Below are positions 858 through 26,921 of a stretch of DNA of 33,033 bases, in pieces. Origin of the DNA: Verrucomicrobiota bacterium (GTDB lineage Bacteria; Verrucomicrobiota; Verrucomicrobiia; Chthoniobacterales; UBA10450). Under the pieces are notes generated by a model. The model was not told the origin of the DNA. It did no database searches and was given only the letters and a program-made list of their open reading frames with translations. Positions within the stretch are counted from its first letter, which is position 1. Every line of letters begins with the position of its first letter. The position numbers were made by a program, and so were the translations under genes. The stretch spans positions 1,499-34,531 of the forward strand of contig QHOF01000001.1 of assembly GCA_003219335.1 (NCBI GenBank). The letters run 5' to 3'.

Positions 858-1296
858 TGGTCACCTCCTCGAGCGCACCTTGAGTCATCAGGCAGAGATC
901 CTCGCAGTATGCAGTAGGGGATGTAGCCGACTCCTATCACCTACACTTTTTGGCAGCAAGATCTTTATTGTCTTTTCCGGGAACTGGCTCGCTTCCGAGG
1001 TTACACACTTCGGCGTCGTGGTGCTGTTTGTTCAAACATCTCGCTGCACGCACAGCACTGAGGCAATTTTTCACAACGTATCTTGATTGATCGCTTTATA
1101 GTTATAGGCTCAAAAAGAGGCTCCTACATCACGCTTTTCTACCAGCGTATTCGGAAGTGACGGCCACTTTGGACCAGTTCATCCGGGTGGAGACCGGAGA
1201 TGGCGTCGCGATTCTCGAGGGGTGAAGCATCGAATGTTCGACCGACCGCTGCCGTTATCCCCGGGGGAACGTGAAAGAGCATGAAAGGAGAAGGTT

Positions 1297-1863
1297 ATGT
1301 CGATTGCATGGAACAAGGACGTTGATGCTGCGCTTGCGCAAGCGCGGACCGCCAAGCGCCCGTTGTTGATAGACTTCAACGCAGCTCCGATGTGAGGGGC
1401 TTGCGCTCGGCTGGATGCCGAGGTTTATCCCGACCCGCGCGTCGAGAGCTTCATCAATGACAACTACTTGCCGGTCAAAATCCACATCAAAGAACAGCCC
1501 AAAACCTTCGAGCGCTTCGGCGCGCAGTGGACACCGACGATCCAGGTGCTGGATCCGGATGGAACCAAGCGACACCAGTTCGAAGGTTTTCTACCGCCGG
1601 ATGATTTTCTTGGACAACTGAAGCTCGGGCTCGCGCACTCCGCCTTTGCGCGCCAACAGTGGAAAGAGGCAGAGAGTCGCTACGATGACATCGTGAAAAC
1701 CTTGCCCGACTCGGATGCGGCTCCTGAAGCGCTCTACTGGGCGGGTGTCTCACGCTACAAGAGCAGCGGTGATCCGACGGCACTGCAGCAGACGACCGAA
1801 GCGTTCAAAATTCACTACCAAGGCAGCACGTGGGCAAAGAAAGCTTCCGTCTGGGCAAAGTGA
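1297..1863 (+). CDS. Thioredoxin-fold + TPR-like protein with in-frame TGA (1393-1395) at the first redox-Cys position; candidate selenoprotein (alternatively a nonsense pseudogene)
   Basis: ATG 1297 is preceded by AAAGGAGAAGG. Own translation: MSIAWNKDVDAALAQARTAKRPLLIDFNAAPM-[TGA]-GACARLDAEVYPDPRVESFINDNYLPVKIH. It continues in the same frame into track ORF 1468..1863 (1468-1297=171, divisible by 3). The LLIDF strand followed by x-x-x-x-x-[U]-G-A-C is the position of a thioredoxin CxxC motif. Confidence 0.6.
1396..1431 (+). promoter_or_regulatory. Candidate bacterial SECIS-like stem-loop immediately 3' of the in-frame UGA
   Basis: Perfect 6-bp helix CTCGGC(1406-1411)/GCCGAG(1417-1422) with 5-nt apical loop TGGAT, starting 11 nt after the TGA. 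GGG(1396-1398)/CCC(1429-1431) could close a lower stem around an internal loop. Folded by eye only. Confidence 0.4.
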
Positions 1864-2431: not shown

Positions 2432-3688
2432 CTAGAGTTTCCTGTGGGGCTTATCGCGATTCCTCTCCTTCTCGCCTAATGCTTCCATTTGTCTTTCGGC
2501 ATCAGCCGGCTGTGTTCTGGTAAGAGAGAATCGGTTCAAAAATTCTGGCGCGGCGCGCATTAAGATGGCATTGAGTAGAATCGTCAAAAGCGACGCGGCC
2601 AGTGTCGCACTGTAAACATGGGCTTCCACCAGACCGGCATCTCTGGCAACCCGGACGAGAACATAGGAGAACTCGCCGATCTGGGTCAATCCCACGCCTA
2701 CCAGTACCGCGGTCCTGAGAGAATAACGAAACAGTTTCACAACAGAACTCCAGATTACAAACTTGCCGACTATGATGACTGCAACGATGGCCCCGAGGAG
2801 AGCCGGATTCGAGATGAGAGCTTTGGGATCTATGAGAGTGCCGATCGTAACAAAGAAGAGAGCGACGAAAGAATTCCTCAGCGGAAGCAACTCCGCCAGT
2901 ATTTCATGCCCGGCCTCAGATTCACTGACGACCATTCCGGCCAAAAAGGCGCCTAACGCGAGTGATAATCCGAGAGCTTGCGTCGTCGCGGCGGTTGCAA
3001 ATCCCAAAGCCAGAGCCACCAGGATACGGAGCTCCTGATTCCTCGTATCGGGAATGTGCGGCATAAGCAGCGGCACCAGTTTCGCCGCTATGAAGATGAC
3101 TGGAGCCAGAATCAATAGCGCCTTCCCGAAAGCCATCCCGATGCTCACGAACTCACTCCCGCTAAACGTTGTCAGCACTGGAACAACGACAATCATCAGG
3201 ACAAATGCCAGATCATCGACTAGAGTGATCCCGATCATCACTCGCCCGTGTTCAGAATGGAGCTCTCCTCGATCAATGAGAAGCTGCGAGAGCACCATGG
3301 TGCTGGCGAGGGACGTAACTGCGCCAACGATTATACTTTGTGAAATAGTCCAACCCAGTGCCCACCCGAGGAGCAGGGCCAGAGCGATCACAAGCCCGAG
3401 CCCGAGCGGCCCACCGATCAGCGCAACCCATTTCACCTGGAGAAGGTCGCGGAAGGAGAACTCGATACCGATGGAGTACATGAGCAGAATGACGCCGATT
3501 TCGGCGAAGGGCTCAAGAACATGGATGTCCGAAAGGCTAGGCCCAGGTGTGAAGGGGCCGATGACGATTCCGCCCAGCACGTACCCCATGATAAGCGGCT
3601 GCCCCAGTCGCTTGGCGATTAGGCCACCCAAAACAGCGGCGACAAACACGTATGCGAGATCGCGATAGAGAACAGCCTCAGCAGCCAT
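2432..3688 (-). CDS. Cation:proton antiporter, CPA2 (Kef/YbaL-type membrane domain, no RCK domain)
   Basis: 418-aa polytopic ORF. The N-terminus (LAYVFVAAVLGGLIAKRLGQPLIMGYVLGGIVIGPF...EIGVILLMYSIGIEFSF) is the typical Na_H_Exchanger/KefB signature. Confidence 0.85.
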   Translation of the reverse strand: MAAEAVLYRDLAYVFVAAVLGGLIAKRLGQPLIMGYVLGGIVIGPFTPGPSLSDIHVLEPFAEIGVILLMYSIGIEFSFRDLLQVKWVALIGGPLGLGLVIALALLLGWALGWTISQSIIVGAVTSLASTMVLSQLLIDRGELHSEHGRVMIGITLVDDLAFVLMIVVVPVLTTFSGSEFVSIGMAFGKALLILAPVIFIAAKLVPLLMPHIPDTRNQELRILVALALGFATAATTQALGLSLALGAFLAGMVVSESEAGHEILAELLPLRNSFVALFFVTIGTLIDPKALISNPALLGAIVAVIIVGKFVIWSSVVKLFRYSLRTAVLVGVGLTQIGEFSYVLVRVARDAGLVEAHVYSATLAASLLTILLNAILMRAAPEFLNRFSLTRTQPADAERQMEALGEKERNRDKPHRKL

Positions 3689-5401: not shown

Positions 5402-6308
5402 ATGGCAACAGTGACGGAGCGTCGGAAGATACTGGGTCTAAAGCGGCTGCTGGTCGCGACCGATCTCTCGTCACGCGCCGAGAAGGCAATAGCGCGTGCC
5501 GTGCAGTTGGCCGAGGAGCACAGCGGCACACTTTCAGTCTTACATATATTGACGGGAGCGTCGGGACATGAAACCGAGCGCTCGCAGATCGTTTCTCGGA
5601 TCGAGAAAGATCTACGCCGCAAGCTTGAGGCACTTTCTCTTAAAAGGACCGCTTTAGCGTCTGTTCGGGGTTCTTTCCGGTACGCCATTTGTGGAGATTA
5701 TCCGCCAGGGCCGTGAGGAAGCAGCCGATCTTATTGTTGTCGGGGCGCACGGAAAAGATTTTATGAAGGACCTGTTGCTCGGTGCGACCGCCGAGAAAAT
5801 CGTCCGTAAAGGAGACCGTTCAGTACTGGTAGTCAAGCGGGCGGCTCAAAGTTCGTACCGCCGGGTGTTAGTGGGGGTGGATTTTTCCGACAATTCTCGG
5901 CATGCGCTGGAATTGGCTCTGCGGCTCGCGCCGCGGGCAGAATTTCATGCCTTACATGTTTATGCAGGGGTTGAAGGAATGCTCAGGCGAGCCGGTGTCA
6001 CAGATTCGGGAATCGTACGCTACCAGCGTGAGGTGGCGAAGGAGGCGCGCAAACAAATGGAGATATTCATACGCAGCATTGATCGGCACCGTAAACCGAT
6101 CAGGAGAGAAGTATGGAACGGGCGGGCAGGTCGGGAAATCACTACGATTGCCAGGCGCCAGCGTGCCGATTTGGTGGCGGTTGGAACGGCTGGTCGCACA
6201 GGCATTCCTTATATCTTACTCGGCAGTGTCGCCGAACACGTGATGCGGGAGGCTGCCTGCGATGTATTAGTGGTGCGATCCGGCTCCATACCGTTTGAAC
6301 TGCCATAG
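5402..6308 (+). pseudogene. Tandem universal stress protein (2 USP domains) interrupted by a +1 frameshift in a GGGG run (5667-5670)
   Basis: Track ORFs 5402..5716 and 5691..6308 are two halves of one gene. Removing one G from 5667-5670 gives ...LKRTALASVRVLSGTPFVEIIRQGREEAADLIVVGAHGKDFMKDLLLGATAEKIVRKGDRSVLVV, a canonical USP domain 1. A second domain follows (RVLVGVDFSDNS...GTAGRTGIPYILLGSVAEHVMREAACDVLVV). Confidence 0.8.
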
Positions 6309-6664: not shown

Positions 6665-7951
6665 ATGACCACAGACGCAAGTGCCGTCGGTCACGTTCTG
6701 CCAGGACCATCCGACGATCTTCTCGCCAAGCTTGAGGGTATCTATCGAGATATTCATGCCAATCCGGAACTGTCGATGCAGGAGCATCGCACGTCCGGCA
6801 TCGCCGCTGCATGGTTGCGCGAGCGGGGATACGACGTGACGGAGGGCGTTGGCGGCACGGGCGTTGTCGGGTTGCTCCGCAACGGCGACGGCCCCACCGT
6901 GCTGCTGCGCGCCGATATGGATGCATTGCCGATCAAGGAAAGCACCGGCCTACCTTACGCGAGCGATAGGACCGGAACCGATCGCTTCGGCCAAGCAACG
7001 TCGATCGCACATTCTTGCGGACACGATATGCATGTCACCTGGCTGATGGGGGCGACGCGCGTGATGGCCGAGAACCGTACCGACTGGCGCGGCACCGTCA
7101 TGGCTGTCTTCCAACCGGGCGAGGAAACCGGCCAAGGCGCACGCGCAATGATCGAGGATGGCATGGTCAAGCGCTTCCCCAAGCCGGACGTTACCTTGGG
7201 CCAGCATGTGATGCCGCTCTCGGCAGGACAGATCGGCTGGCGCACCGGGACGATGCTGTCGGCTGGCGACAGTTGGGAGGTGACATTGTTCGGACGTGGC
7301 GCTCACGGGTCGATGCCACAAAAGAGTATCGATCCGGTGGTGATGGCTGCCTCGGCCGTGATGCGTCTGCAGACAGTGGTATCGCGGGAAGTGGCGATGA
7401 CTGATTCCGCGGTCGTTACTGTCGGCACAATGAGCGCGGGTATGAACGAGAATGTTATCCCTGACCGAGCGTTGCTTCGCCTGAACGTCCGTACCTTCAA
7501 GGACGGGGTGCGCACGCGTGTGTTGGCGGCGATCAAGCGGATATTGAAGGCGGAGGCCGAAGCTTCAGGCGCTCCAAAACCTCCGGAATTTTCCGTGCTC
7601 AGTGAATTTCCGCTGACACGCAACGATGACGCGGCGACACGCAAGACGGTAGCCGCCCTGGAGCGTTGGTTTGGCACGGATCGGGTGACCGAGATCGCTC
7701 CCGCCACAGCGAGCGAGGACTTTGGTCGGTTCGGCGCAGCGTGGGACGTGCCGGCGGTATTCTGGGTCATCGGCGGTATCGACCCCGCCACTTACGCAAA
7801 CGCCGAGGAGGCCGGCAAGCTGGACGAGCTTCCGGCGAATCACGCTCCCGACTTCGCGCCGGTGATTCATCCCACTCTGCGCACGGGTGTTGAGGCGATG
7901 CTCGCTGCGGCCGGCGCCTGGATTTGCCCGGCCGCCGCCAGCTCAGTTTGA
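6665..7951 (+). CDS. M20-family amidohydrolase (aminoacylase / hippurate-hydrolase-like, M20D)
   Basis: ATG 6665 has AAAGGAG upstream and is in frame with track ORF 6587..7951. Motifs: YRDIHANPELSMQEHRT, LLRADMDALPI, HSCGHDMH, FQPGEE. Confidence 0.85.
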   Translation: MTTDASAVGHVLPGPSDDLLAKLEGIYRDIHANPELSMQEHRTSGIAAAWLRERGYDVTEGVGGTGVVGLLRNGDGPTVLLRADMDALPIKESTGLPYASDRTGTDRFGQATSIAHSCGHDMHVTWLMGATRVMAENRTDWRGTVMAVFQPGEETGQGARAMIEDGMVKRFPKPDVTLGQHVMPLSAGQIGWRTGTMLSAGDSWEVTLFGRGAHGSMPQKSIDPVVMAASAVMRLQTVVSREVAMTDSAVVTVGTMSAGMNENVIPDRALLRLNVRTFKDGVRTRVLAAIKRILKAEAEASGAPKPPEFSVLSEFPLTRNDDAATRKTVAALERWFGTDRVTEIAPATASEDFGRFGAAWDVPAVFWVIGGIDPATYANAEEAGKLDELPANHAPDFAPVIHPTLRTGVEAMLAAAGAWICPAAASSV

Positions 7952-9382: not shown

Positions 9383-9572
9383 CAAGCGTCATCGCTTAAT
9401 TGCTCCATTGGACATCGCTGAGATCACGTAGGCGCTGCGAAGTCGAAATTCCACCTCGGGTGTTGTTAATATCTTTTAGCCTGTTTTCGCAGGCGCAAAA
9501 TATGAAATGCCGAGAACGATCGGCGGAATAACCGTGACGATCTGACACACCTGGATATCTGTGGAGGGAAGC

Positions 9573-10481
9573 ATGTATACCAGGATCCTGGCTCCGCTGG
9601 ATGGCTCCAAGACCGCGGAAAACGTATTGCCATTCGTTCGCTCGTTTGCGCGGAATTTACAGATTCCCGTCGAATTTTTTGCCGTTGTGGACGTGGTGAA
9701 TATGGCGCGCGACGTTTACGCAGCCGAAAGGTTATTTCTGGATTCATTGGTGGAAGACGAGGCTCGCAGGCTGGGCGAATATTTGAACGACGTTGCCAAG
9801 AATTTTCCCGTCGGCACCGTGCACTGGCGAGTGCAGCCGGGATCGCCGGCCGAGGCCATCATCGATGCGGCGTTAGCGGAAAAGGACGCGCTGATCGCGA
9901 TGGCGACCCACGGACGCTCAGGTCTTAACCGCTGGCTTCTTGGCAGCGTCGCCGAAAAGGTTCTTCGCGGCGCATCGAATCCGCTGCTCCTGGTAAGGGC
10001 CACGGAGAGCGCGCCGCAGTGGAGCATGGCGGCGCTCAAGTCGGTCATCGTTCCGCTGGACGGTTCAGAGACCGCCGAAAGGGTGCTGCCGTCCGCTGGG
10101 GCGTTGGCGAAGAGCCTCGATCTAGAAGTGGTCTTGCTACGCGTTTACGGCATTCCTTACGGCGCCTATTCCCCCGGCGAAGGATTGTACGATGCTATGC
10201 AAATGGAAAAATTCGCGGCCAGCCTCCGGGACGAGGGGAGCGCGTATCTCGAAGAAAAGGCGAAGGCGCTCCGAGGCCGCGGGGTCAAAAAGGTCTCGAC
10301 CATTGTCAAGGAGGGTCTTGACGCCGATGAGATCATTTCGTTGGCTCGCCAGACTCCCGACAATCTGATCGCCATGTGCACCCACGGGCGCTCCGGCGTG
10401 AAGCGCTGGGCATTGGGCAGCGTAACCGAAACCGTGGTGCGCCACTCCGGCGATCCGGTGTTAATCGTGCGCACCGCCTAA
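9573..10481 (+). CDS. Tandem universal stress protein (UspA family, 2 domains)
   Basis: ATG 9573 follows GGAGGGA; the track ORF starts at GTG 9561. Domain 1: RILAPLDGSKTAE...ATHGRSGLNRWLLGSVAEKVLRGASNPLLLV. Domain 2: VIVPLDGSETAE...CTHGRSGVKRWALGSVTETVVRHSGDPVLIV. Confidence 0.9.
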   Translation: MYTRILAPLDGSKTAENVLPFVRSFARNLQIPVEFFAVVDVVNMARDVYAAERLFLDSLVEDEARRLGEYLNDVAKNFPVGTVHWRVQPGSPAEAIIDAALAEKDALIAMATHGRSGLNRWLLGSVAEKVLRGASNPLLLVRATESAPQWSMAALKSVIVPLDGSETAERVLPSAGALAKSLDLEVVLLRVYGIPYGAYSPGEGLYDAMQMEKFAASLRDEGSAYLEEKAKALRGRGVKKVSTIVKEGLDADEIISLARQTPDNLIAMCTHGRSGVKRWALGSVTETVVRHSGDPVLIVRTA

Positions 10482-15589: not shown

Positions 15590-17191
15590 TCAGATATTGG
15601 CAAGCTCGCCGAAATATTCCTGATCCTCGTTATATCCTCCTTCGCCTTGGCCAATGGACTCGACGCTTTCTACGAATTCGATTGACCGAATCCACTTGAC
15701 CATCTTGAAGCCAAGTTGGTTCTCAACTCTGAGCCGCAAGGGCGCGCCATGCAGGTCACCGAGCGGCTTAAAATTCATCTCGTAGGCGAGCAAGCTTTGC
15801 GGGTGCCGGAGATTCGCAATCGAGTGACTGTCGTAGTATTGGCCTCCCTCCAGTCCTTCTCCGAAGGAATAGAAAACAACGATCCGCGCATTCGGCTTTG
15901 GTCGGACCAGACGCATTAACTCACTCGTCGGCAACCCGCCCCACTCGGCGATGCCCGACCAACCCTGGATACAATGGTGTAGCGTGGTCTGCCTCTTCAC
16001 GCCCATCGCTTTGAGATCATCTAACGAAAGTTCAGCGGGGTTTTCGACCAGGCCGTTTACTTTCAGCCGATAATCCTTGAAATTTTCCGCAGCCAACGTC
16101 TTCCACTCTTTAGAGGTGGGTACCTTACCGTTGGGCCAGAGAAAAGGAGAGATCTCCCGGCGGTCGAACTCGGCGGATGGTGCCGCGTTATTGAGAAGGA
16201 ACTCCATCGCCGGCGTGACAACGGCCTTCGCGAGATGCTGGACGGCTCTGGGACGTCTCCAGGCCAACCAGTTAGCGAAGACATTCACAACTATGATGAT
16301 GCCGATCCCCAGGAGACCCAGAAACAAACCGAGCCGGCGGGAGTCGTCCGTTCCGAGCACGATGTGGTTCATGTTCCGGACAAAGCCGGTGGCCGACACC
16401 ATGGCTACGTGTACAACGATAAAGAGGACAAAGGCACACATCACGAAGAAATGAAGCGATCGGCCGATTTGCCGGTTGCCCGGCAGCTTCGGATACCATC
16501 TGAAGCGATTCGTCAAGGCTGGCGACATCGACGGGCCGGTGAGAATCGCTAAAGGGGCCAAAACAAAGATAACAGCGAAGTAAGTCAGTTGTTGAAGCGC
16601 ATTATAGCGGTAAAAGCCCAACTCCGGCGGCAAATGAAAAGTTGCATAGTGAACAAAAACAGCCCAGGCGTCAGGCACAACCTGCCACGTGGTGGGCACT
16701 AGGCGTTTCCACTGCTCAGTGCTGAACAACAGGATGACATAGACTAGGCCATTGATCACCCAAAAGAGAACACTAAGAAAATGCCAGTGTCGAGCCATGC
16801 CAACGGTATGCCGGTAACCTGGCAGGCCGATCCACGGAGAAAGGTACCGCGAGTCGTCCTTGGCAGTCCAGACGCGATCTTTCGGCACCTCGAGCGGTGT
16901 GAACCGAAGCCACTCCGTGCCAGGAGTGCAGTGAACATTCCAGTAGAGCCGGGGGTGGTCGACAAAAATTTGCAGGCCACTGCGGATCAGAAGGATGATG
17001 AAAAAGAAATTGATGTAGTGGGTGAAACGAAGCCATGCTGGAAACCCCTGGGGAGCCATAGTTTTGACGAAAGCCTGACGACTCGGCGGCAGTGCGGGGA
17101 GACCAAGCAGTGCCCATTGGATGTAAGCCGCCACGACCAGGAGCACTAAAGGTACAATCACAAGCAGCGGTATAGTGAGTCGGATACGCAT
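15590..17191 (-). CDS. Membrane cytochrome-b561-like domain fused to a sulfite-oxidase-family molybdopterin (MsrP/YedY-like) domain
   Basis: The N-terminal ~330 aa are polytopic with His-containing helices (LRFTHYINFFFIILLIRSGLQIF, ARHWHFLSVLFWVINGLVYVILLF, HFFVMCAFVLFIVVHV). The C-terminus is an Oxidored_molyb pattern: FKDYRLKVNGLVENPAELSLDDLKAMG..QTTLHHCIQGWSGIAEWGGLP...GAPLRLRVENQLGFKMVKWI. Confidence 0.8.
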   Translation of the reverse strand: MRIRLTIPLLVIVPLVLLVVAAYIQWALLGLPALPPSRQAFVKTMAPQGFPAWLRFTHYINFFFIILLIRSGLQIFVDHPRLYWNVHCTPGTEWLRFTPLEVPKDRVWTAKDDSRYLSPWIGLPGYRHTVGMARHWHFLSVLFWVINGLVYVILLFSTEQWKRLVPTTWQVVPDAWAVFVHYATFHLPPELGFYRYNALQQLTYFAVIFVLAPLAILTGPSMSPALTNRFRWYPKLPGNRQIGRSLHFFVMCAFVLFIVVHVAMVSATGFVRNMNHIVLGTDDSRRLGLFLGLLGIGIIIVVNVFANWLAWRRPRAVQHLAKAVVTPAMEFLLNNAAPSAEFDRREISPFLWPNGKVPTSKEWKTLAAENFKDYRLKVNGLVENPAELSLDDLKAMGVKRQTTLHHCIQGWSGIAEWGGLPTSELMRLVRPKPNARIVVFYSFGEGLEGGQYYDSHSIANLRHPQSLLAYEMNFKPLGDLHGAPLRLRVENQLGFKMVKWIRSIEFVESVESIGQGEGGYNEDQEYFGELANI

Positions 17192-17445: not shown

Positions 17446-17952
17446 TTATTCAACAACCCAAACGGTGAGGTTGTGGGCGTTGCGGACCAATTCGTCTGCC
17501 ACGTGATGGTGGAAAAGTTCTTTAAGCCAGGAGAACGATTTTCTCCCGACTACGACCGTGTTGCATTTGTTCAATCGTCCCGCATCTAAGATATCACCGG
17601 CCAAGCCTTTGCTTTTGACATCAATCCAAAACTCCGTGTTTACGGCTTTAGCGGGAAGTCGTGCCTTCTTAAAAGTTGATTTTGCTTTTTTCAATATCGG
17701 TAATGCCTTTGTTTTGGCTTTTTCAATCCATTGTTCGCGTTTATCTTTGAGTTCGTTCTCCAGTTTCTCCTCCCTCTCAGGATCCTCCGACCCTCCGAAT
17801 TCCGTTAGTTCCGGCGGCAGGGGTCCAAGCACATTCAGCAAGCAAATAGTAAAGTCTCTCTTTCCCGCGATCATGTTGGCTACATAGTTAACCGCCCGCA
17901 TCGAGGCCTTTGAATCATCCACAGCGACGAGAATCCTGTTTTTTCTGTTCAT
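17446..17952 (-). CDS. Universal stress protein (single domain with a charged insert)
   Basis: NRILVAVDDSKASMRAVNYVANMI...VVVGRKSFSWLKELFHHHVADELVRNAHNLTVWVV. This is the USP fold pattern with a Lys/Glu-rich insertion. Confidence 0.8.
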   Translation of the reverse strand: MNRKNRILVAVDDSKASMRAVNYVANMIAGKRDFTICLLNVLGPLPPELTEFGGSEDPEREEKLENELKDKREQWIEKAKTKALPILKKAKSTFKKARLPAKAVNTEFWIDVKSKGLAGDILDAGRLNKCNTVVVGRKSFSWLKELFHHHVADELVRNAHNLTVWVVE

Positions 17953-22888: not shown

Positions 22889-25411
22889 TCAAAATTTCAC
22901 CTTTTTGTAAAAAACCGTCTTCACCATTTCCGCTGCGATAATGTAAAGCATGACAATTACCACTATGAGCAAAAGGAACGAAATCGGCAGCCGGCTAAAT
23001 CCAAAAATCTCACCAAGCGGCGTGAAGGGCACAACCACCGTCACGATAACAGTCAATAGAGTCGCCATTAAGAGATACTTCGAGGGTCTACTCTTGAAGG
23101 AAGGTTTCCGACTTCGAATAACAAGCACAATCAAGGACGCTGAAATAACCGACTCCAGAAACCAGCCGGTTCTGAACTGATCCTGGGTCGCATGAAGCAT
23201 GATCAAAAGTGCGGCGAAGGTGAGGTAGTCAAACACCGAACTCAGCAGGCCGAAGGTTATCATAAACTTGCGAATGGCCTTGATGTCCCAGCGCCGCGGA
23301 TGGTCAACCATTTCGCTATCCACCCGGTCGGTGGCGATGGTCATCTCGGGAAAATCGGTCATCAGGTTGGTGAGCAAGATCTGCTTGGGCAGCAATGGGA
23401 GAAACGGCAGGTAGAGCGATACTCCGGCCATGCTGAACATGTTGCCGAAATTGGCGCTGGTGGCCATGAAGACATACTTGAGCGTGTTCGCGAAGGTCGT
23501 CCGTCCTTCACGCACGCCCTGCACAAGGACACCCAGATCCTTTTCGAGTAAGACGATATCAGCCGCCTCTTTGGCAACATCGACGGCGCTCTCAACGGAA
23601 ATACCAACATCGGCGGCATGGAGCGTCGAGGCATCATTGATGCCGTCTCCCATATAACCGACGACGTTTCCAGCCGTCTTGAGGGCGAGGATGATGCGCT
23701 CTTTCTGGTTGGGCTCGATTTCGGCGAAGACGTCCACGTCAACCAGATGTTTGAGCAGCGCGCCATCGCTTAGCCGGCGAAGGTCCGGCCCTGTGAGGAT
23801 TTTTGTACTCGATAATCCCATCTGTTGACTGACATTGGCCGCGACCAGGTGATTGTCTCCGGTGATGATCTTCAGTGCAACGCCGAGGTTTTTCAGGCTG
23901 GCAATGGTCTCGATGATCTTGGGCTTGGGCGGATCAAAAAGAACAAGGAATCCCAAAAACGTCATGCCGGCCTCGTCGACTTTGCTCATCAGTGATGCAG
24001 ATCCCATATTTTTATATGCGACGCCGAGGGTGCGAAAGCCCTTATTACTGAACTCCTCGAAGTGCTGCTGGATTTGGACCTGCACCACGGCGATATCGAC
24101 GAGGGTTCCCGCTCCAGTTTCCGCCGCTGAACAGACGGCAAGCACATTTTGCAGCGCGCCTTTGGTCACCATCAGATGGGTATCATCATGAGCAACCAGA
24201 ACGCTCAATCGCCTCCGAAGAAAATCATACGGGATTTCGTCCGCCTTCCGGTAGCCGGACAGGTCAAACTGGCACTGGGCGCGGATAGCTGCATCGATGG
24301 GGTTTGTAAAGCCGGTCTCGTAAAACGCATTGAGATACGCATGAAGAAGCACTTTATCGCTTGAAGCACCTGTCACATCAAGGGCGGATTGTAAGCGCAC
24401 GCTGCCTTCGGTCAGGGTGCCGGTCTTATCGGAGCAGATCACGTTCATGCTGCCGAAGTTTTCAATCGAAGCGAGCCGTTTGACGATCACTCTTGCTTGC
24501 GCCATCCGTTTGGCGCCGTGGGCAAGATTGATGCTGATGATTGCCGGCAACAGTTGCGGAGTGAGGCCAACCGCGAGTGCCAGGGAAAAGAGGAAGGAGT
24601 CCAGAATCGGACGCGCCAAGTAGACGTTGATAGCGAAGATAGCCATCACCAGCACGAGCGTCACTTCCATGAGGAAATAACCGAATCGCCGTATGCCACG
24701 TTCAAAGTCCGTTTCCTGCGGCCGGAGTCTTAACCGCTCGGAGACCTTGCCGAACTCGGTTTGCTTGCCTGTGGTTATGACCAGCGCCTTAGCGCTGCCG
24801 CTAACCACATGAGTTCCCATCCATAGCGCATTTGTCCGCTGGCCAAGCGGTGTCTCCGGCGCAAGCACCCCAACGGATTTCTCTACAGGGTAGGTTTCAC
24901 CCGTCAGGGTTGCTTCATCGACAAAGAGATCTTTAGATTCATCAACCAGACAGTCACCCGGGACGATATCTCCGGCGTTTAGAATGACGATATCTCCGGG
25001 CACAATCTCTTCGACGGGAATTTCATAAGGCCTTCCATCACGAAGCACGGTAGCCTTAATTTGCACCATGGCCAGCAGTTGCTCCACGGCGTTGGTTGCG
25101 CTGTGCTCTTGCCAAAACCCGAGAAGGCCGCTTACGAGGACAATTGTGAGAATGATGAGAGCGTTAACAGGATCGTGTAAAAAAAATGACAATCCAGTGG
25201 CAAACAAAAGAAGGAGGATGAGCGGGCTCTTGAATTGAGCCAACAGGAGCGTGAGCACATCCGACCGCTTTTGGGGCTCCAGGAGATTAGAGCCATAGCG
25301 GGCGAGCCGCTGCCTGGCTTCCTCACTGCTCAATCCTTCCGTTGCCGTTTCAAGGCGCTGGAGTATCTCGATCGCAGAGACGCACCAGAAGGCCGAAAGG
25401 AGTTGGTTCAT
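22889..25411 (-). CDS. mgtA: Magnesium-translocating P-type ATPase (MgtA/MgtB type)
   Basis: GLSSEEARQRLARYGSNLL, TGE, CSDKTGTLT, MVTKGA, TGDN, GDGINDA, and the C-terminal WFLESVISASLIVLVIRS typical of MgtA. ATG 25411 is preferred. The track ORF begins at TTG 25468, overlapping the upstream gene by 35 nt. Confidence 0.88.
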   Translation of the reverse strand: MNQLLSAFWCVSAIEILQRLETATEGLSSEEARQRLARYGSNLLEPQKRSDVLTLLLAQFKSPLILLLLFATGLSFFLHDPVNALIILTIVLVSGLLGFWQEHSATNAVEQLLAMVQIKATVLRDGRPYEIPVEEIVPGDIVILNAGDIVPGDCLVDESKDLFVDEATLTGETYPVEKSVGVLAPETPLGQRTNALWMGTHVVSGSAKALVITTGKQTEFGKVSERLRLRPQETDFERGIRRFGYFLMEVTLVLVMAIFAINVYLARPILDSFLFSLALAVGLTPQLLPAIISINLAHGAKRMAQARVIVKRLASIENFGSMNVICSDKTGTLTEGSVRLQSALDVTGASSDKVLLHAYLNAFYETGFTNPIDAAIRAQCQFDLSGYRKADEIPYDFLRRRLSVLVAHDDTHLMVTKGALQNVLAVCSAAETGAGTLVDIAVVQVQIQQHFEEFSNKGFRTLGVAYKNMGSASLMSKVDEAGMTFLGFLVLFDPPKPKIIETIASLKNLGVALKIITGDNHLVAANVSQQMGLSSTKILTGPDLRRLSDGALLKHLVDVDVFAEIEPNQKERIILALKTAGNVVGYMGDGINDASTLHAADVGISVESAVDVAKEAADIVLLEKDLGVLVQGVREGRTTFANTLKYVFMATSANFGNMFSMAGVSLYLPFLPLLPKQILLTNLMTDFPEMTIATDRVDSEMVDHPRRWDIKAIRKFMITFGLLSSVFDYLTFAALLIMLHATQDQFRTGWFLESVISASLIVLVIRSRKPSFKSRPSKYLLMATLLTVIVTVVVPFTPLGEIFGFSRLPISFLLLIVVIVMLYIIAAEMVKTVFYKKVKF

Positions 25412-25433
25412 ACCGATTGTTGAACTTACAACC

Positions 25434-25820
25434 TTATTTTCGAAAGTGTTGTCGAACTTTTGCCGCAATCTGGCGATCGGTCATCTTGTCGACTGTTTCA
25501 ATGCCGACGATGCGCTCACCAAGTCCCTTATTCGCAAGTCGTTTTTGGAGCTCGCCCTTTGCCTCGCCAGGACCAAAGATCAAAATAGATTCTGAATCGC
25601 GAAGATGCGAGGTTACCTCGTCATAGTATCTGTTAAGATGGCTGGTAAATTGTCTGTCTCGCTGGTCGTCTGCCTTGCCTTCTTCTGCTCTAGAACCGCC
25701 AGAAAATCGGACATGCTTCTCCATGCCTGATTCTATTCGCCTCGTTTCTTCTCCGTCGTCTTCGATAAACACGATAAACGTCTCGCTGTGGTCAATCCAC
25801 AAACCCGCTTGTCTTTTCAT
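25434..25820 (-). CDS. Small eRF1/Pelota-domain-like protein (family often annotated 'translational machinery protein'; assignment from memory)
   Basis: 128 aa with AAAGGAGGGA RBS. MKRQAGLWIDHSETFIVFIEDDG...SILIFGPGEAKGELQKRLANKGLGERIVGIETVDKMTDRQIAAKVRQHF. The WIDH..a.I N-terminus and the GPGeaK..l segment resemble eRF1-like domain proteins. Confidence 0.5.
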   Translation of the reverse strand: MKRQAGLWIDHSETFIVFIEDDGEETRRIESGMEKHVRFSGGSRAEEGKADDQRDRQFTSHLNRYYDEVTSHLRDSESILIFGPGEAKGELQKRLANKGLGERIVGIETVDKMTDRQIAAKVRQHFRK

Positions 25821-26018: not shown

Positions 26019-26921
26019 TCACGGCATTTCAAATTGAAACGCCTCCGGTCTGATGGTGAGGACAGGGCAGGATGCCGTACGCACCACCTTTTCGGCCACG
26101 CTGCCTAAGAGCACATGGGGCAAACCGCTTCTACCGTGCGTGCCTATCACGATTATATCCGCTTGCACGTGCTTCGCTTGATGCACAATCGCGGTGGCCG
26201 TTTGACCTTCTTCAGTGCATTTTTCCCAGGCGACTTTCTCTAAGGGCAAACCGGAGAGGAAAGCTTCCCACTCGGGTTCAATCTCTTCTGGGGAAGGCGT
26301 TGAAATCGGCACGCTTACGCCCAGATCATGCGCATATGCGATAGTATATGAATGATAAGAGTCCAGAACATGAAAGAAAACGATCCGGGCAGAAAAGTTC
26401 TTCGCTAGCATGAGCGCCTCCTCGGCGGCTTTTCTGGCACAAGAGGAGAAATCCGTGGGGACCAAAAATGTTTTGGCTTCGGAACTCAGGGACTTTTTCG
26501 TAACCATTACGGGTACCATGGCCTTGCGTAGGATCCGCTCGCTTGTACTGCCGAGAAAGGGCCCTTCCGTCCGGGACGCGCCACCGACTACTATCAGATC
26601 CGCCAGCCAGGCCCTTCCGGCAATGATGAGTTCAACAAATGGTTTGCCCATGCGCACCTCGTATTCCACTTGCAGGCGGGCGAGCGCCGGGCTTACCGCT
26701 AACGCCCGCAGTCTTGCTCCGGTTTTCTGTGCGATCTCCTCTAGAGTGAAAGGCGAAGTGAGCGGATGCGAGATCCTCTGATAGGCATCGAGCGGTTCTA
26801 CCACGTGAACCAGTCGCAGTGCAGCACCACATCGATTGGCAAGCGCCACTGCGGATCCTAGCGCTACCTCTCCGCCGACTCCCAGATCATGACCAACAAT
26901 AATCCTTTTTAGCTGTCTCAT
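26019..26921 (-). CDS. Tandem universal stress protein (UspA family, 2 domains)
   Basis: Domain 1: RIIVGHDLGVGGEVALGSAVALA...GASRTEGPFLGSTSERILRKAMVPVMV. Domain 2: FLVPTDFSSCARKAAEEAL...GTHGRSGLPHVLLGSVAEKVVRTASCPVLTI. Confidence 0.88.
   Translation of the reverse strand: MRQLKRIIVGHDLGVGGEVALGSAVALANRCGAALRLVHVVEPLDAYQRISHPLTSPFTLEEIAQKTGARLRALAVSPALARLQVEYEVRMGKPFVELIIAGRAWLADLIVVGGASRTEGPFLGSTSERILRKAMVPVMVTKKSLSSEAKTFLVPTDFSSCARKAAEEALMLAKNFSARIVFFHVLDSYHSYTIAYAHDLGVSVPISTPSPEEIEPEWEAFLSGLPLEKVAWEKCTEEGQTATAIVHQAKHVQADIIVIGTHGRSGLPHVLLGSVAEKVVRTASCPVLTIRPEAFQFEMP

Follow-up and report, generated by a model that had tools for sequence, protein, structure and literature searches.

Positions 1297-1863 of a 33,033-nt stretch of contig QHOF01000001.1 from a Verrucomicrobiota bacterium (the window, by which we mean the whole stretch of DNA that was analysed) probably form one intact gene. 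It would encode a 188-residue selenoprotein of the thiol:disulfide interchange protein (Trx-like 2) family, in which an in-frame UGA at 1393-1395 is read as selenocysteine (Sec, U). We assign this reading a probability of about 0.9, because homology spans the UGA, TGA is conserved at this codon across phyla, distant homologues have Cys there, selection is seen on both sides of the codon, and a downstream hairpin carries its own comparative evidence. The first-pass annotation, made from the letters of the window, had proposed a Sec-containing thioredoxin protein with a tetratricopeptide repeat (TPR)-like part rather than a pseudogene, and the data on TGA conservation, selection and the hairpin strongly support that proposal. 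Neither a new mechanism nor a new family is involved; the novelty is an additional member and a large soil-bacterial clade around it.

The gene opens, as had been noted before, with a strong ribosome-binding site, GAAAGGAGAAGG, whose AGGAG core (1286-1290) is spaced 6 nt from the ATG at 1297, and the N-termini of homologues (MSIAWNKD, MAITWRKD) match the start residue in the window. The conceptual translation runs in the order MSIAWNKDVDAALAQARTAKRPLLIDFNAAPM, TGA, GACARLDAEVYPD..., with this TGA as the single internal stop of the 188-codon frame (...KRPLLIDFNAAPM*GACARLD...). Another 155 codons follow before the terminator at 1861-1863. The listed open reading frame (ORF) at 1468-1863 (TTG start, 131 aa) is merely the tail of the same frame, and on both points our translation agrees with the first-pass annotation. 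When U33 was replaced by Cys, the product matched the Pfam families Thioredoxin_2 (PF13098; 3.7e-12, 46.9 bits, cut-off 27, residues 17-106) and Thioredoxin_7 (1.4e-11, residues 4-87). These matches cover both sides of the TGA, which means that the homology extends across the stop.

Among 5.8 billion proteins searched, 3,533 relatives of the window protein were found. The closest (60-98% identity) are nearly all 129-150 aa long and start right past the UGA column, the hallmark of a common in-frame stop. Database relatives that appear to be full-length carry Trp, Cys or Arg at this column. Where the DNA was readable, Trp turned out to be a TGA mistranslated on a short contig (loci L003 and L004), Cys a genuine TGT (L002) and Arg a CGA (L001). 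A scan of one genome per species, with the peptide C[AV]RL[DE]AE among the probes, gave 534 matching stretches. TGA was found at the column in 80 of 80 when the best 80 of the 534 were evaluated, and in 83 of 85 sequences overall. The TGA-bearing loci belong to Terriglobia, Thermoanaerobaculia, Bryobacteraceae, Vicinamibacterales, Pyrinomonadaceae, Gemmatimonadota, Myxococcota, Eisenbacteria, Binatia and others, and represent at least five phyla. Because that scan had probed the active-site peptide itself, we repeated it on metagenome contigs recruited by C-terminal alignment only (probes WAK[KR]ASVW and EA[LQ]YW[AQ]GV). TGA occupied the column in 73 of the 75 evaluable metagenome loci, and the two others are entirely without a homologous N-terminus.

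More distant relatives were collected with a profile of the clade, which returned 21,427 proteins from 1.84 billion representatives. Among the best 150 of these, 84 end at the U column, and 43 of the representatives of at most 260 aa with N-terminal coverage have Cys there. The first-pass annotation had placed the UGA at the first Cys of a CxxC motif whose partner Cys is kept, and had pointed to the alignment of homologues at this column. That placement is borne out by the conserved TGA in both samples, by the Cys of the 43 distant representatives, and by members of the selenoprotein family itself, which align U on U (see below).

The codons on either side of the TGA appear to be translated as one protein. 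None of the 85 relatives has a stop in the 32 upstream codons, and conservation at the first, second and third codon positions (0.76/0.78/0.59 upstream, 0.78/0.83/0.57 downstream) shows the same pattern of protein-level selection on both flanks. Cys36 is invariant in all 85 with a mixture of synonymous codons (TGC in 57, TGT in 28), and the stretch just past the UGA is therefore translated. Variants that would dispense with Sec are rare: codon 10112-10114 of L001, on a 979-kb contig, is CGA (Arg), and codon 118-120 of L002 is TGT (Cys). Both retain the hairpin nucleotides intact, which suggests that Sec was replaced only recently. With Arg at the column, the first redox residue would be missing. 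A few metagenome loci are irregular in other ways. In L101 and L142 the TGA and the hairpin are present, but unrelated sequence has taken the place of most of the N-terminal 32 codons; L103 and L134 have neither N-terminus nor TGA; and in L152 a Glu to Gln change (GAG to CAG) disrupts one hairpin pair. These five may be chimeric contigs or decayed copies.

Downstream of the UGA, CUCGGC (1406-1411) pairs without mismatch to GCCGAG (1417-1422) in a 6-bp helix capped by the loop UGGAU; 10 nt lie between UGA and helix. The sequence thus confirms what had been described as a perfect helix with a G-containing 5-nt loop, starting at the 11th nucleotide after the UGA. The hairpin has an energy of -10.0 kcal/mol alone and -11.4 kcal/mol in context. 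It is included in the minimum free energy (MFE) fold of the UGA plus 45 nt (-18.7 kcal/mol), and in the corresponding fold of the first 45 nt in 83 of the 85 sequences.

Its codons are frozen in a way that the same genes do not show elsewhere. In all 85 sequences the hairpin Arg is CGG (27% elsewhere), the Leu is CTG (37%) and the second Ala is GCC (35%); third positions of the flanking Val, Tyr, Pro and Asp codons vary freely. Pairing was found in 98.8% of cells across 87 sequences, as against 28-50% in slid controls. Two compensatory changes, independent of each other, were observed. In L004 the closing C-G pair has become U-A (GUU ... GAA), and an inner G-C pair has become A-U in the P0058 clade (L088-L091) and again in L112, in which Arg CGG has been replaced by Gln CAG and Ala GCC by GCU. 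The observed double changes were reached by none of 500 shuffles. This conservation pattern recurs in the metagenome sample, which was recruited without this region. Structure downstream of the UGA, which the first-pass annotation had proposed looking for in orthologues, is therefore conserved in them beyond the protein requirement. A register with a bulged A, proposed by RNAalifold, was indistinguishable from the perfect 6-bp register; we report the latter because the changes in L004 and L088 fit it.

The hairpin was compared with the bacterial selenocysteine insertion sequence (SECIS) model of bSECISearch (Zhang and Gladyshev 2005), as quoted in Fig. 2 of a review (PMC13188914). That model allows loops of 3-9 nt and upper stems of 4-16 bp. 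It requires a G as the first or second loop nucleotide (or as both), most often with G or U next, together with a UGA-to-loop distance of 16-37 nt and an energy of at most -7.5 kcal/mol. The window element has a 5-nt UGGAU loop on 6 bp, a loop of the form U-G-G-A-N in which G-G is invariant in 87 sequences, a distance of 16 nt (1396-1411) at the lower limit, and energies that are, in each of the three settings above, lower than required. All four published criteria thus uphold the SECIS-type placement of the hairpin that had been suggested. As in the bacterial consensus, the hairpin lies in coding sequence just 3' of the UGA, and its second loop position is a G followed by G. The minimal SECIS of E. 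coli fdhF, which Liu et al. are said to have defined in 1998, is reportedly also a 17-nt stem-loop 11 nt after the UGA. The sequence of the window hairpin is unrelated to that of fdhF, however. It also differs from fdhF and from the consensus in having no clearly supported bulged U and in being unusually invariant across phyla, the latter because it overlaps a conserved peptide. Rfam gave nothing relevant around the gene at E values up to 10 and nothing at gathering score anywhere in the window.

The first-pass annotation had considered the architecture of this protein to lie outside the classic selenoprotein families, and this was wrong. The family appears in several reviews and lists (PMC13188914 Table 1, PMC9312934, PMC2398784 and the supplement of PMC12013277). 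PMC13188914 names it 'Thiol:disulfide interchange protein', with PF13098, a UxxC motif and the reference sequence WP_011366075.1, attributes it to Kryukov and Gladyshev (2004, EMBO Rep 5:538), and grades it 'predicted with high confidence'. 'Trx-like 2' is the name used in the Global Ocean Sampling (GOS) paper. Using reference sequences from the deep-Sep supplement (PMC12013277), we aligned the window protein end to end with WP_011366075.1 (35% identity, 181 aa, E 1e-35) and with a second family member (32% identity, 188 aa, E 6e-37), in both cases with U aligned to U. The first alignment takes in the C-terminal helical region (APEA.Y..GV.RY...W). With such a full-length U-on-U match, the claim of an unlisted architecture fails. 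Moreover, P0159 and P0170, close Cys homologues of WP_011366075.1, are among the best matches of the window-clade profile. The window protein shares with the family a length of about 190 aa, the PF13098 domain, a UxxC motif with predicted Sec in first place, the same C-terminal helical extension, and Cys homologues aligned to Sec.

Unlike the described members of Trx-like 2, the window sequence and its relatives form a tight clade with the motif DF(N/S/T)AAPM-U-(G/S/A)(A/G)-C-ARL(D/E)AE. Its hosts are soil Acidobacteriota, Gemmatimonadota, Myxococcota, Eisenbacteria and others, not the organisms of the original family description. Sec is nearly fixed in this clade: of about 160 loci, one has a Cys and one an Arg form. 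A table of the GOS paper gives 22 versus 2,098 for Trx-like 2, which we read, with some uncertainty, as Sec forms versus Cys homologues; if this reading is correct, the Sec form is rare in the ocean data. The accessible texts on the family do not describe its C-terminal domain as TPR-like, and the literature search found nothing specific on a selenoprotein that combines a thioredoxin domain with TPR or on an acidobacterial selenoprotein of this type. The carrier phyla are not mentioned in the main texts of BSepDB and of the ISME 2016 paper. We consider it an even bet that the clade (DF-x-AAPM-U-x-x-C-ARL[DE]AE) is an unrecognised subfamily of Trx-like 2 in which Sec is essentially fixed, with a 17-nt SECIS that is near-identical in five or more soil phyla; given 534 matches at one genome per species, it could be among the most widespread selenoproteins of soil bacteria. 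Were this so, it would provide a convenient marker of Sec decoding in Acidobacteriota and Gemmatimonadota.

Three other explanations of the in-frame TGA were weighed. The conserved UGA, the stop-free upstream codons, the invariant Cys36, the gene's own TGA stop and the want of a downstream start together count strongly against a split gene, a pseudogene, an assembly error and a reassigned code. An improbable possibility is that the UGA ends a 32-residue leader and translation re-initiates downstream, or that a near-cognate tRNA (Trp, Cys or Arg) reads it independently of SelB and without selenium. Gene callers do output a 32-aa ORF and a 129-150-aa ORF, the window shows no Sec machinery, and the single CGA and TGT relatives indicate that the column tolerates other residues in rare lineages. 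Against this, no start codon downstream of the UGA is conserved in the 85 sequences: the next one in the window is TTG 1468, and the GTG used by callers is Val43, which is GTG in just 38 of 85. The nine codons from the UGA to Val43, which include the invariant Cys36, are under protein-level selection, and a body started downstream would be without the entire redox motif and strand beta-1. Such an explanation would also leave the frozen hairpin, its G-containing loop and its SelB-type distance without a role, in a family that is already listed as a selenoprotein family.

That the TGA arose recently by nonsense mutation, or is TGC or TGT miscalled, is very improbable, although one might cite in its favour an apparent frameshift in a universal stress protein (USP) gene of the window near 5660-5700. 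The same codon is TGA in both samples, across many assemblies, projects and phyla, with frames intact on both sides, and by these comparative data a pseudogene or sequencing error is effectively refuted. Next to no probability attaches to a genetic code (4 or 25) in which UGA means Trp or Gly throughout the genome. It would account for the Trp at the column in several Joint Genome Institute (JGI) proteins (P0029, P0041, P0069 and others), but where the DNA was readable (L003, L004) that Trp is the TGA of a short contig and was not reproduced under code 11, and the carrier phyla use the standard code. Of the 19 ORFs in the window with Pfam support, 10 also have TGA as their stop codon (with ends at 7951, 8628 and 22449, for instance), and the code is therefore standard, as the first-pass annotation had held. 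The selenoprotein gene itself ends with TGA in 42 of 84 relatives.

Several observations weigh against the selenoprotein reading. The literature search found no experimental demonstration of Sec insertion in the Trx-like 2 family, and the 33-kb window contains no selA, selB, selD, tRNA-Sec or second selenoprotein gene. When 80 loci were clustered, no conserved gene neighbours that would indicate a partner or pathway emerged. The structural model described below is of a Cys homologue that is 54% identical, and its active-site loop is of low confidence (predicted local distance difference test score, pLDDT, about 59 at residues 31-40). As for the hairpin, the MFE fold of a 58-nt stretch (1393-1450) leaves it out and scores like shuffled sequences (z = 0.2). 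The window hairpin alone is thus statistically unremarkable, and the case therefore rests on the comparative data. The lower stem has two registers in which 73-87% of cells can pair, with covariation no better than in shuffles. Finally, the hairpin encodes the conserved A-R-L-D-A-E, and its conservation is partly at the protein level; the frozen synonymous sites and the compensatory changes address this point, on few events.

Searches for the Sec machinery extended to related loci. There are no tRNA genes in the window and no sel-related Pfam domains among its 30 ORFs, and tblastn with SelD matched neither the window nor any of 84 related loci. Across the SelD, AhpD-like and deiodinase-like queries, the sole match was a Cys-form AhpD-like gene in L005. 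Sec use is documented in the acidobacterium Occallatibacter riparius (PMC12013277). We infer that the organism from which the window derives can decode Sec.

For the protein structure we used the Cys homologue P0048, modelled with AlphaFold (pLDDT 91, predicted template modelling score 0.87). The model has a thioredoxin fold followed by five helices, as assigned by DSSP. Foldseek matched the N-terminal domain of the model to DsbD-gamma (1VRS/2FWH), which was the top structural neighbour, to the Thermus thermophilus thioredoxin 2LST, to DsbH (2JU5) and to 1UC7, with template modelling (TM) scores on the target of 0.71-0.78 and root-mean-square deviations (rmsd) of 2.1-2.8. The C-terminal part matched the TPR domain of YbgF (2XEV) over 82 columns with an rmsd of 1.2-1.4; Pfam TPR matches to this part were weak and below the cut-off. 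The only matches that covered both domains were YbbN/CnoX (3QDN; TM on the query 0.42, rmsd 10.7) and a Brucella DsbH-domain protein (7TKV; rmsd about 17), both of them poor superpositions. U33-G-A-C36 occupies the CxxC site of relatives, where helix alpha-1 begins. Residues 1-30 are polar and contain no N-terminal hydrophobic signal sequence, for which reason the protein is probably cytoplasmic.

If the selenoprotein reading holds, a ribosome that reaches the UGA would meet SelB with Sec-tRNA(Sec) bound to the 17-nt hairpin. The 6-bp stem and the UGGAU loop, which begins 16 nt past the UGA, would cue insertion of Sec in place of termination, and TGA 1861 would act as the true stop of the gene. 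From fold and motif, the product may be a thiol/selenol-disulfide oxidoreductase that cycles via a Se-S bond between U33 and C36, and its TPR-like domain may hold a protein partner or client.

Three groups of proteins outside the family resemble the product. DsbD gamma, DsbH and DUF255 proteins (Thioredoxin_7, Thioredox_DsbH) are the best structural matches to the N-terminal domain, in agreement with Pfam, and have CxxC at the same place. However, they are Cys-based, mostly periplasmic or membrane-tethered and without a TPR-like tail, whereas the window protein has no signal sequence. The chaperedoxin CnoX/YbbN has the same order of domains, a thioredoxin fold and then TPR-type helices, and Foldseek aligned it over 207 columns, but at about 285 aa it is longer and has more TPR units, and it superposes poorly. 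The sole hint of a link to CnoX is a match to the classical thioredoxin family PF00085 (24.7 bits against a cut-off of 23.5), and no NCBIfam model connects the two proteins. The likeness appears to be a resemblance of architecture only. Some source annotations call relatives of the window protein 'thioredoxin-like negative regulator of GroEL'. The third group is formed by the NCBIfam Trx7-type selenoproteins, namely TsoB (NF045694), the VPGUxxT types 1 and 2 (NF041382/3) and Trx7/PDZ (NF041199), which share a Thioredoxin_7-like fold and carry Sec within the redox motif or close to it. Their motifs and architectures are unlike those of the window protein, and membership was rejected on weak partial matches that score well under the curated cut-offs (41.4 vs 805, 35.9 vs 275, 23.9 vs 300 and 18.7 vs 350 bits). 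No NCBIfam model attained its cut-off on the window protein.

The main value of these results lies in annotation, where they expose a widespread error in soil bacteria, and in ecology. Wherever the gene occurs, its annotation is wrong. Public gene calls of relatives start past the UGA, are 129-150 aa long and carry names such as 'tetratricopeptide repeat protein', 'TolA-binding protein' or the GroEL-regulator name mentioned above. In four loci the 32 codons before the UGA were called as a separate 32-aa 'protein' (L085, 914-1012; L088 and L089, 1375-1473; L090, 435-533), and a 146-aa ORF begins 27 nt after this spurious one. Such a pair of a 32-aa and a downstream ORF is a recognisable artefact that could reveal other missed selenoprotein genes. 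JGI calls on contigs of about 1 kb render the Sec UGA as Trp (L003, 765-767; L004, 196-198), as seen in P0029, P0041, P0069, P0073, P0078, P0080, P0082 and P0087, apparently because a code with UGA as Trp was chosen for the contig. This seeds databases with 'W-x-x-C' pseudo-variants. The mis-annotation strips the protein of its catalytic residue and strand beta-1 and masks a selenium requirement in abundant soil phyla; according to one review, selenoprotein surveys beyond marine environments are very rare. A dedicated profile combined with the invariant SECIS would permit automatic re-annotation of hundreds of genomes. The features of the gene are collected in Table 1.

Table 1. Predicted features of the candidate selenoprotein gene in the window.
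Feature	Position	Strand	Basis
Ribosome-binding site GAAAGGAGAAGG	1283-1294	+	Direct reading; homologues share start residue
Complete predicted selenoprotein gene, 188 codons, Sec as codon 33, stop TGA 1861-1863	1297-1863	+	Translation, Pfam, family alignment
N-terminal 32 codons, helix alpha-0 and strand beta-1 (...KRPLLIDFNAAPM)	1297-1392	+	Stop-free in 85 relatives; codon-position conservation
UGA as predicted selenocysteine U33, first position of the U-G-A-C redox motif	1393-1395	+	Comparative
Codon TGC of the putative resolving Cys36 of UxxC	1402-1404	+	Invariant Cys column
Candidate SECIS core hairpin CUCGGC/UGGAU/GCCGAG within A-R-L-D-A-E codons	1406-1422	+	Pairing, compensatory changes, synonymous freezing
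Possible extended SECIS: GGGG 1396-1399/UCCC 1428-1431 and GC 1403-1404/GU 1423-1424	1396-1431	+	Tentative; MFE
Thioredoxin-fold domain of DsbD-gamma/DsbH (Thioredoxin_7/DUF255) type; boundary approximate	1297-1620	+	Pfam, model, Foldseek
C-terminal all-helical TPR-like domain, five helices; boundary approximate	1612-1860	+	Weak Pfam TPR, Foldseek, DSSP

The gene is flanked by a divergent ftsH on the minus strand and by a GreA/B-like gene (1915-2241). The ftsH gene (about 3-860), identified by eye, is cut by the left edge of the window, for which reason the ORF list lacks it; what is present specifies the N-terminal portion of an AAA protease of the FtsH type. The closest relatives of the window are not syntenic with it. 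The recurrent neighbourhood 'clusters' among related loci were rejected as alternative-frame ORFs that overlap the selenoprotein gene itself, and the only genuine recurrent neighbour, an ABC-F ATPase at 13 loci, looks like lineage synteny. In L085, a relative with 88% identity, the gene is directly followed by a pyridine-nucleotide-disulfide oxidoreductase gene (1574-2779, Pyr_redox_2/AIF_C); its product is a possible electron donor, found next to the gene in L085 only and not conserved.

Four USP genes are present in the window (5402-6308, 9561-10481, 17446-17952 and 26019-26921), three of which have two Usp stretches, together with a Na+/H+ exchanger (2432-3688) and a P-type cation ATPase (22889-25468). 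The neighbourhood is rich in genes for stress and ion homeostasis, with no established link to the selenoprotein. The apparent frameshift noted above lies in the tandem USP gene at 5402-6308. Frame 2, from 5402, covers the initial half of a USP domain up to a stop at 5716, and frame 3 continues with ...GTPFVEIIRQGREEAADLIVVGAHG... (ORF 5691-6308); this split gene is either a pseudogene or an assembly indel. On the minus strand, a 533-aa ORF (15590-17191) joins a membrane domain of the cytochrome b561 type (Ni_hydr_CYTB) to a molybdopterin oxidoreductase domain (Oxidored_molyb) and resembles a fusion of both subunits of an MsrQ/MsrP-type system.

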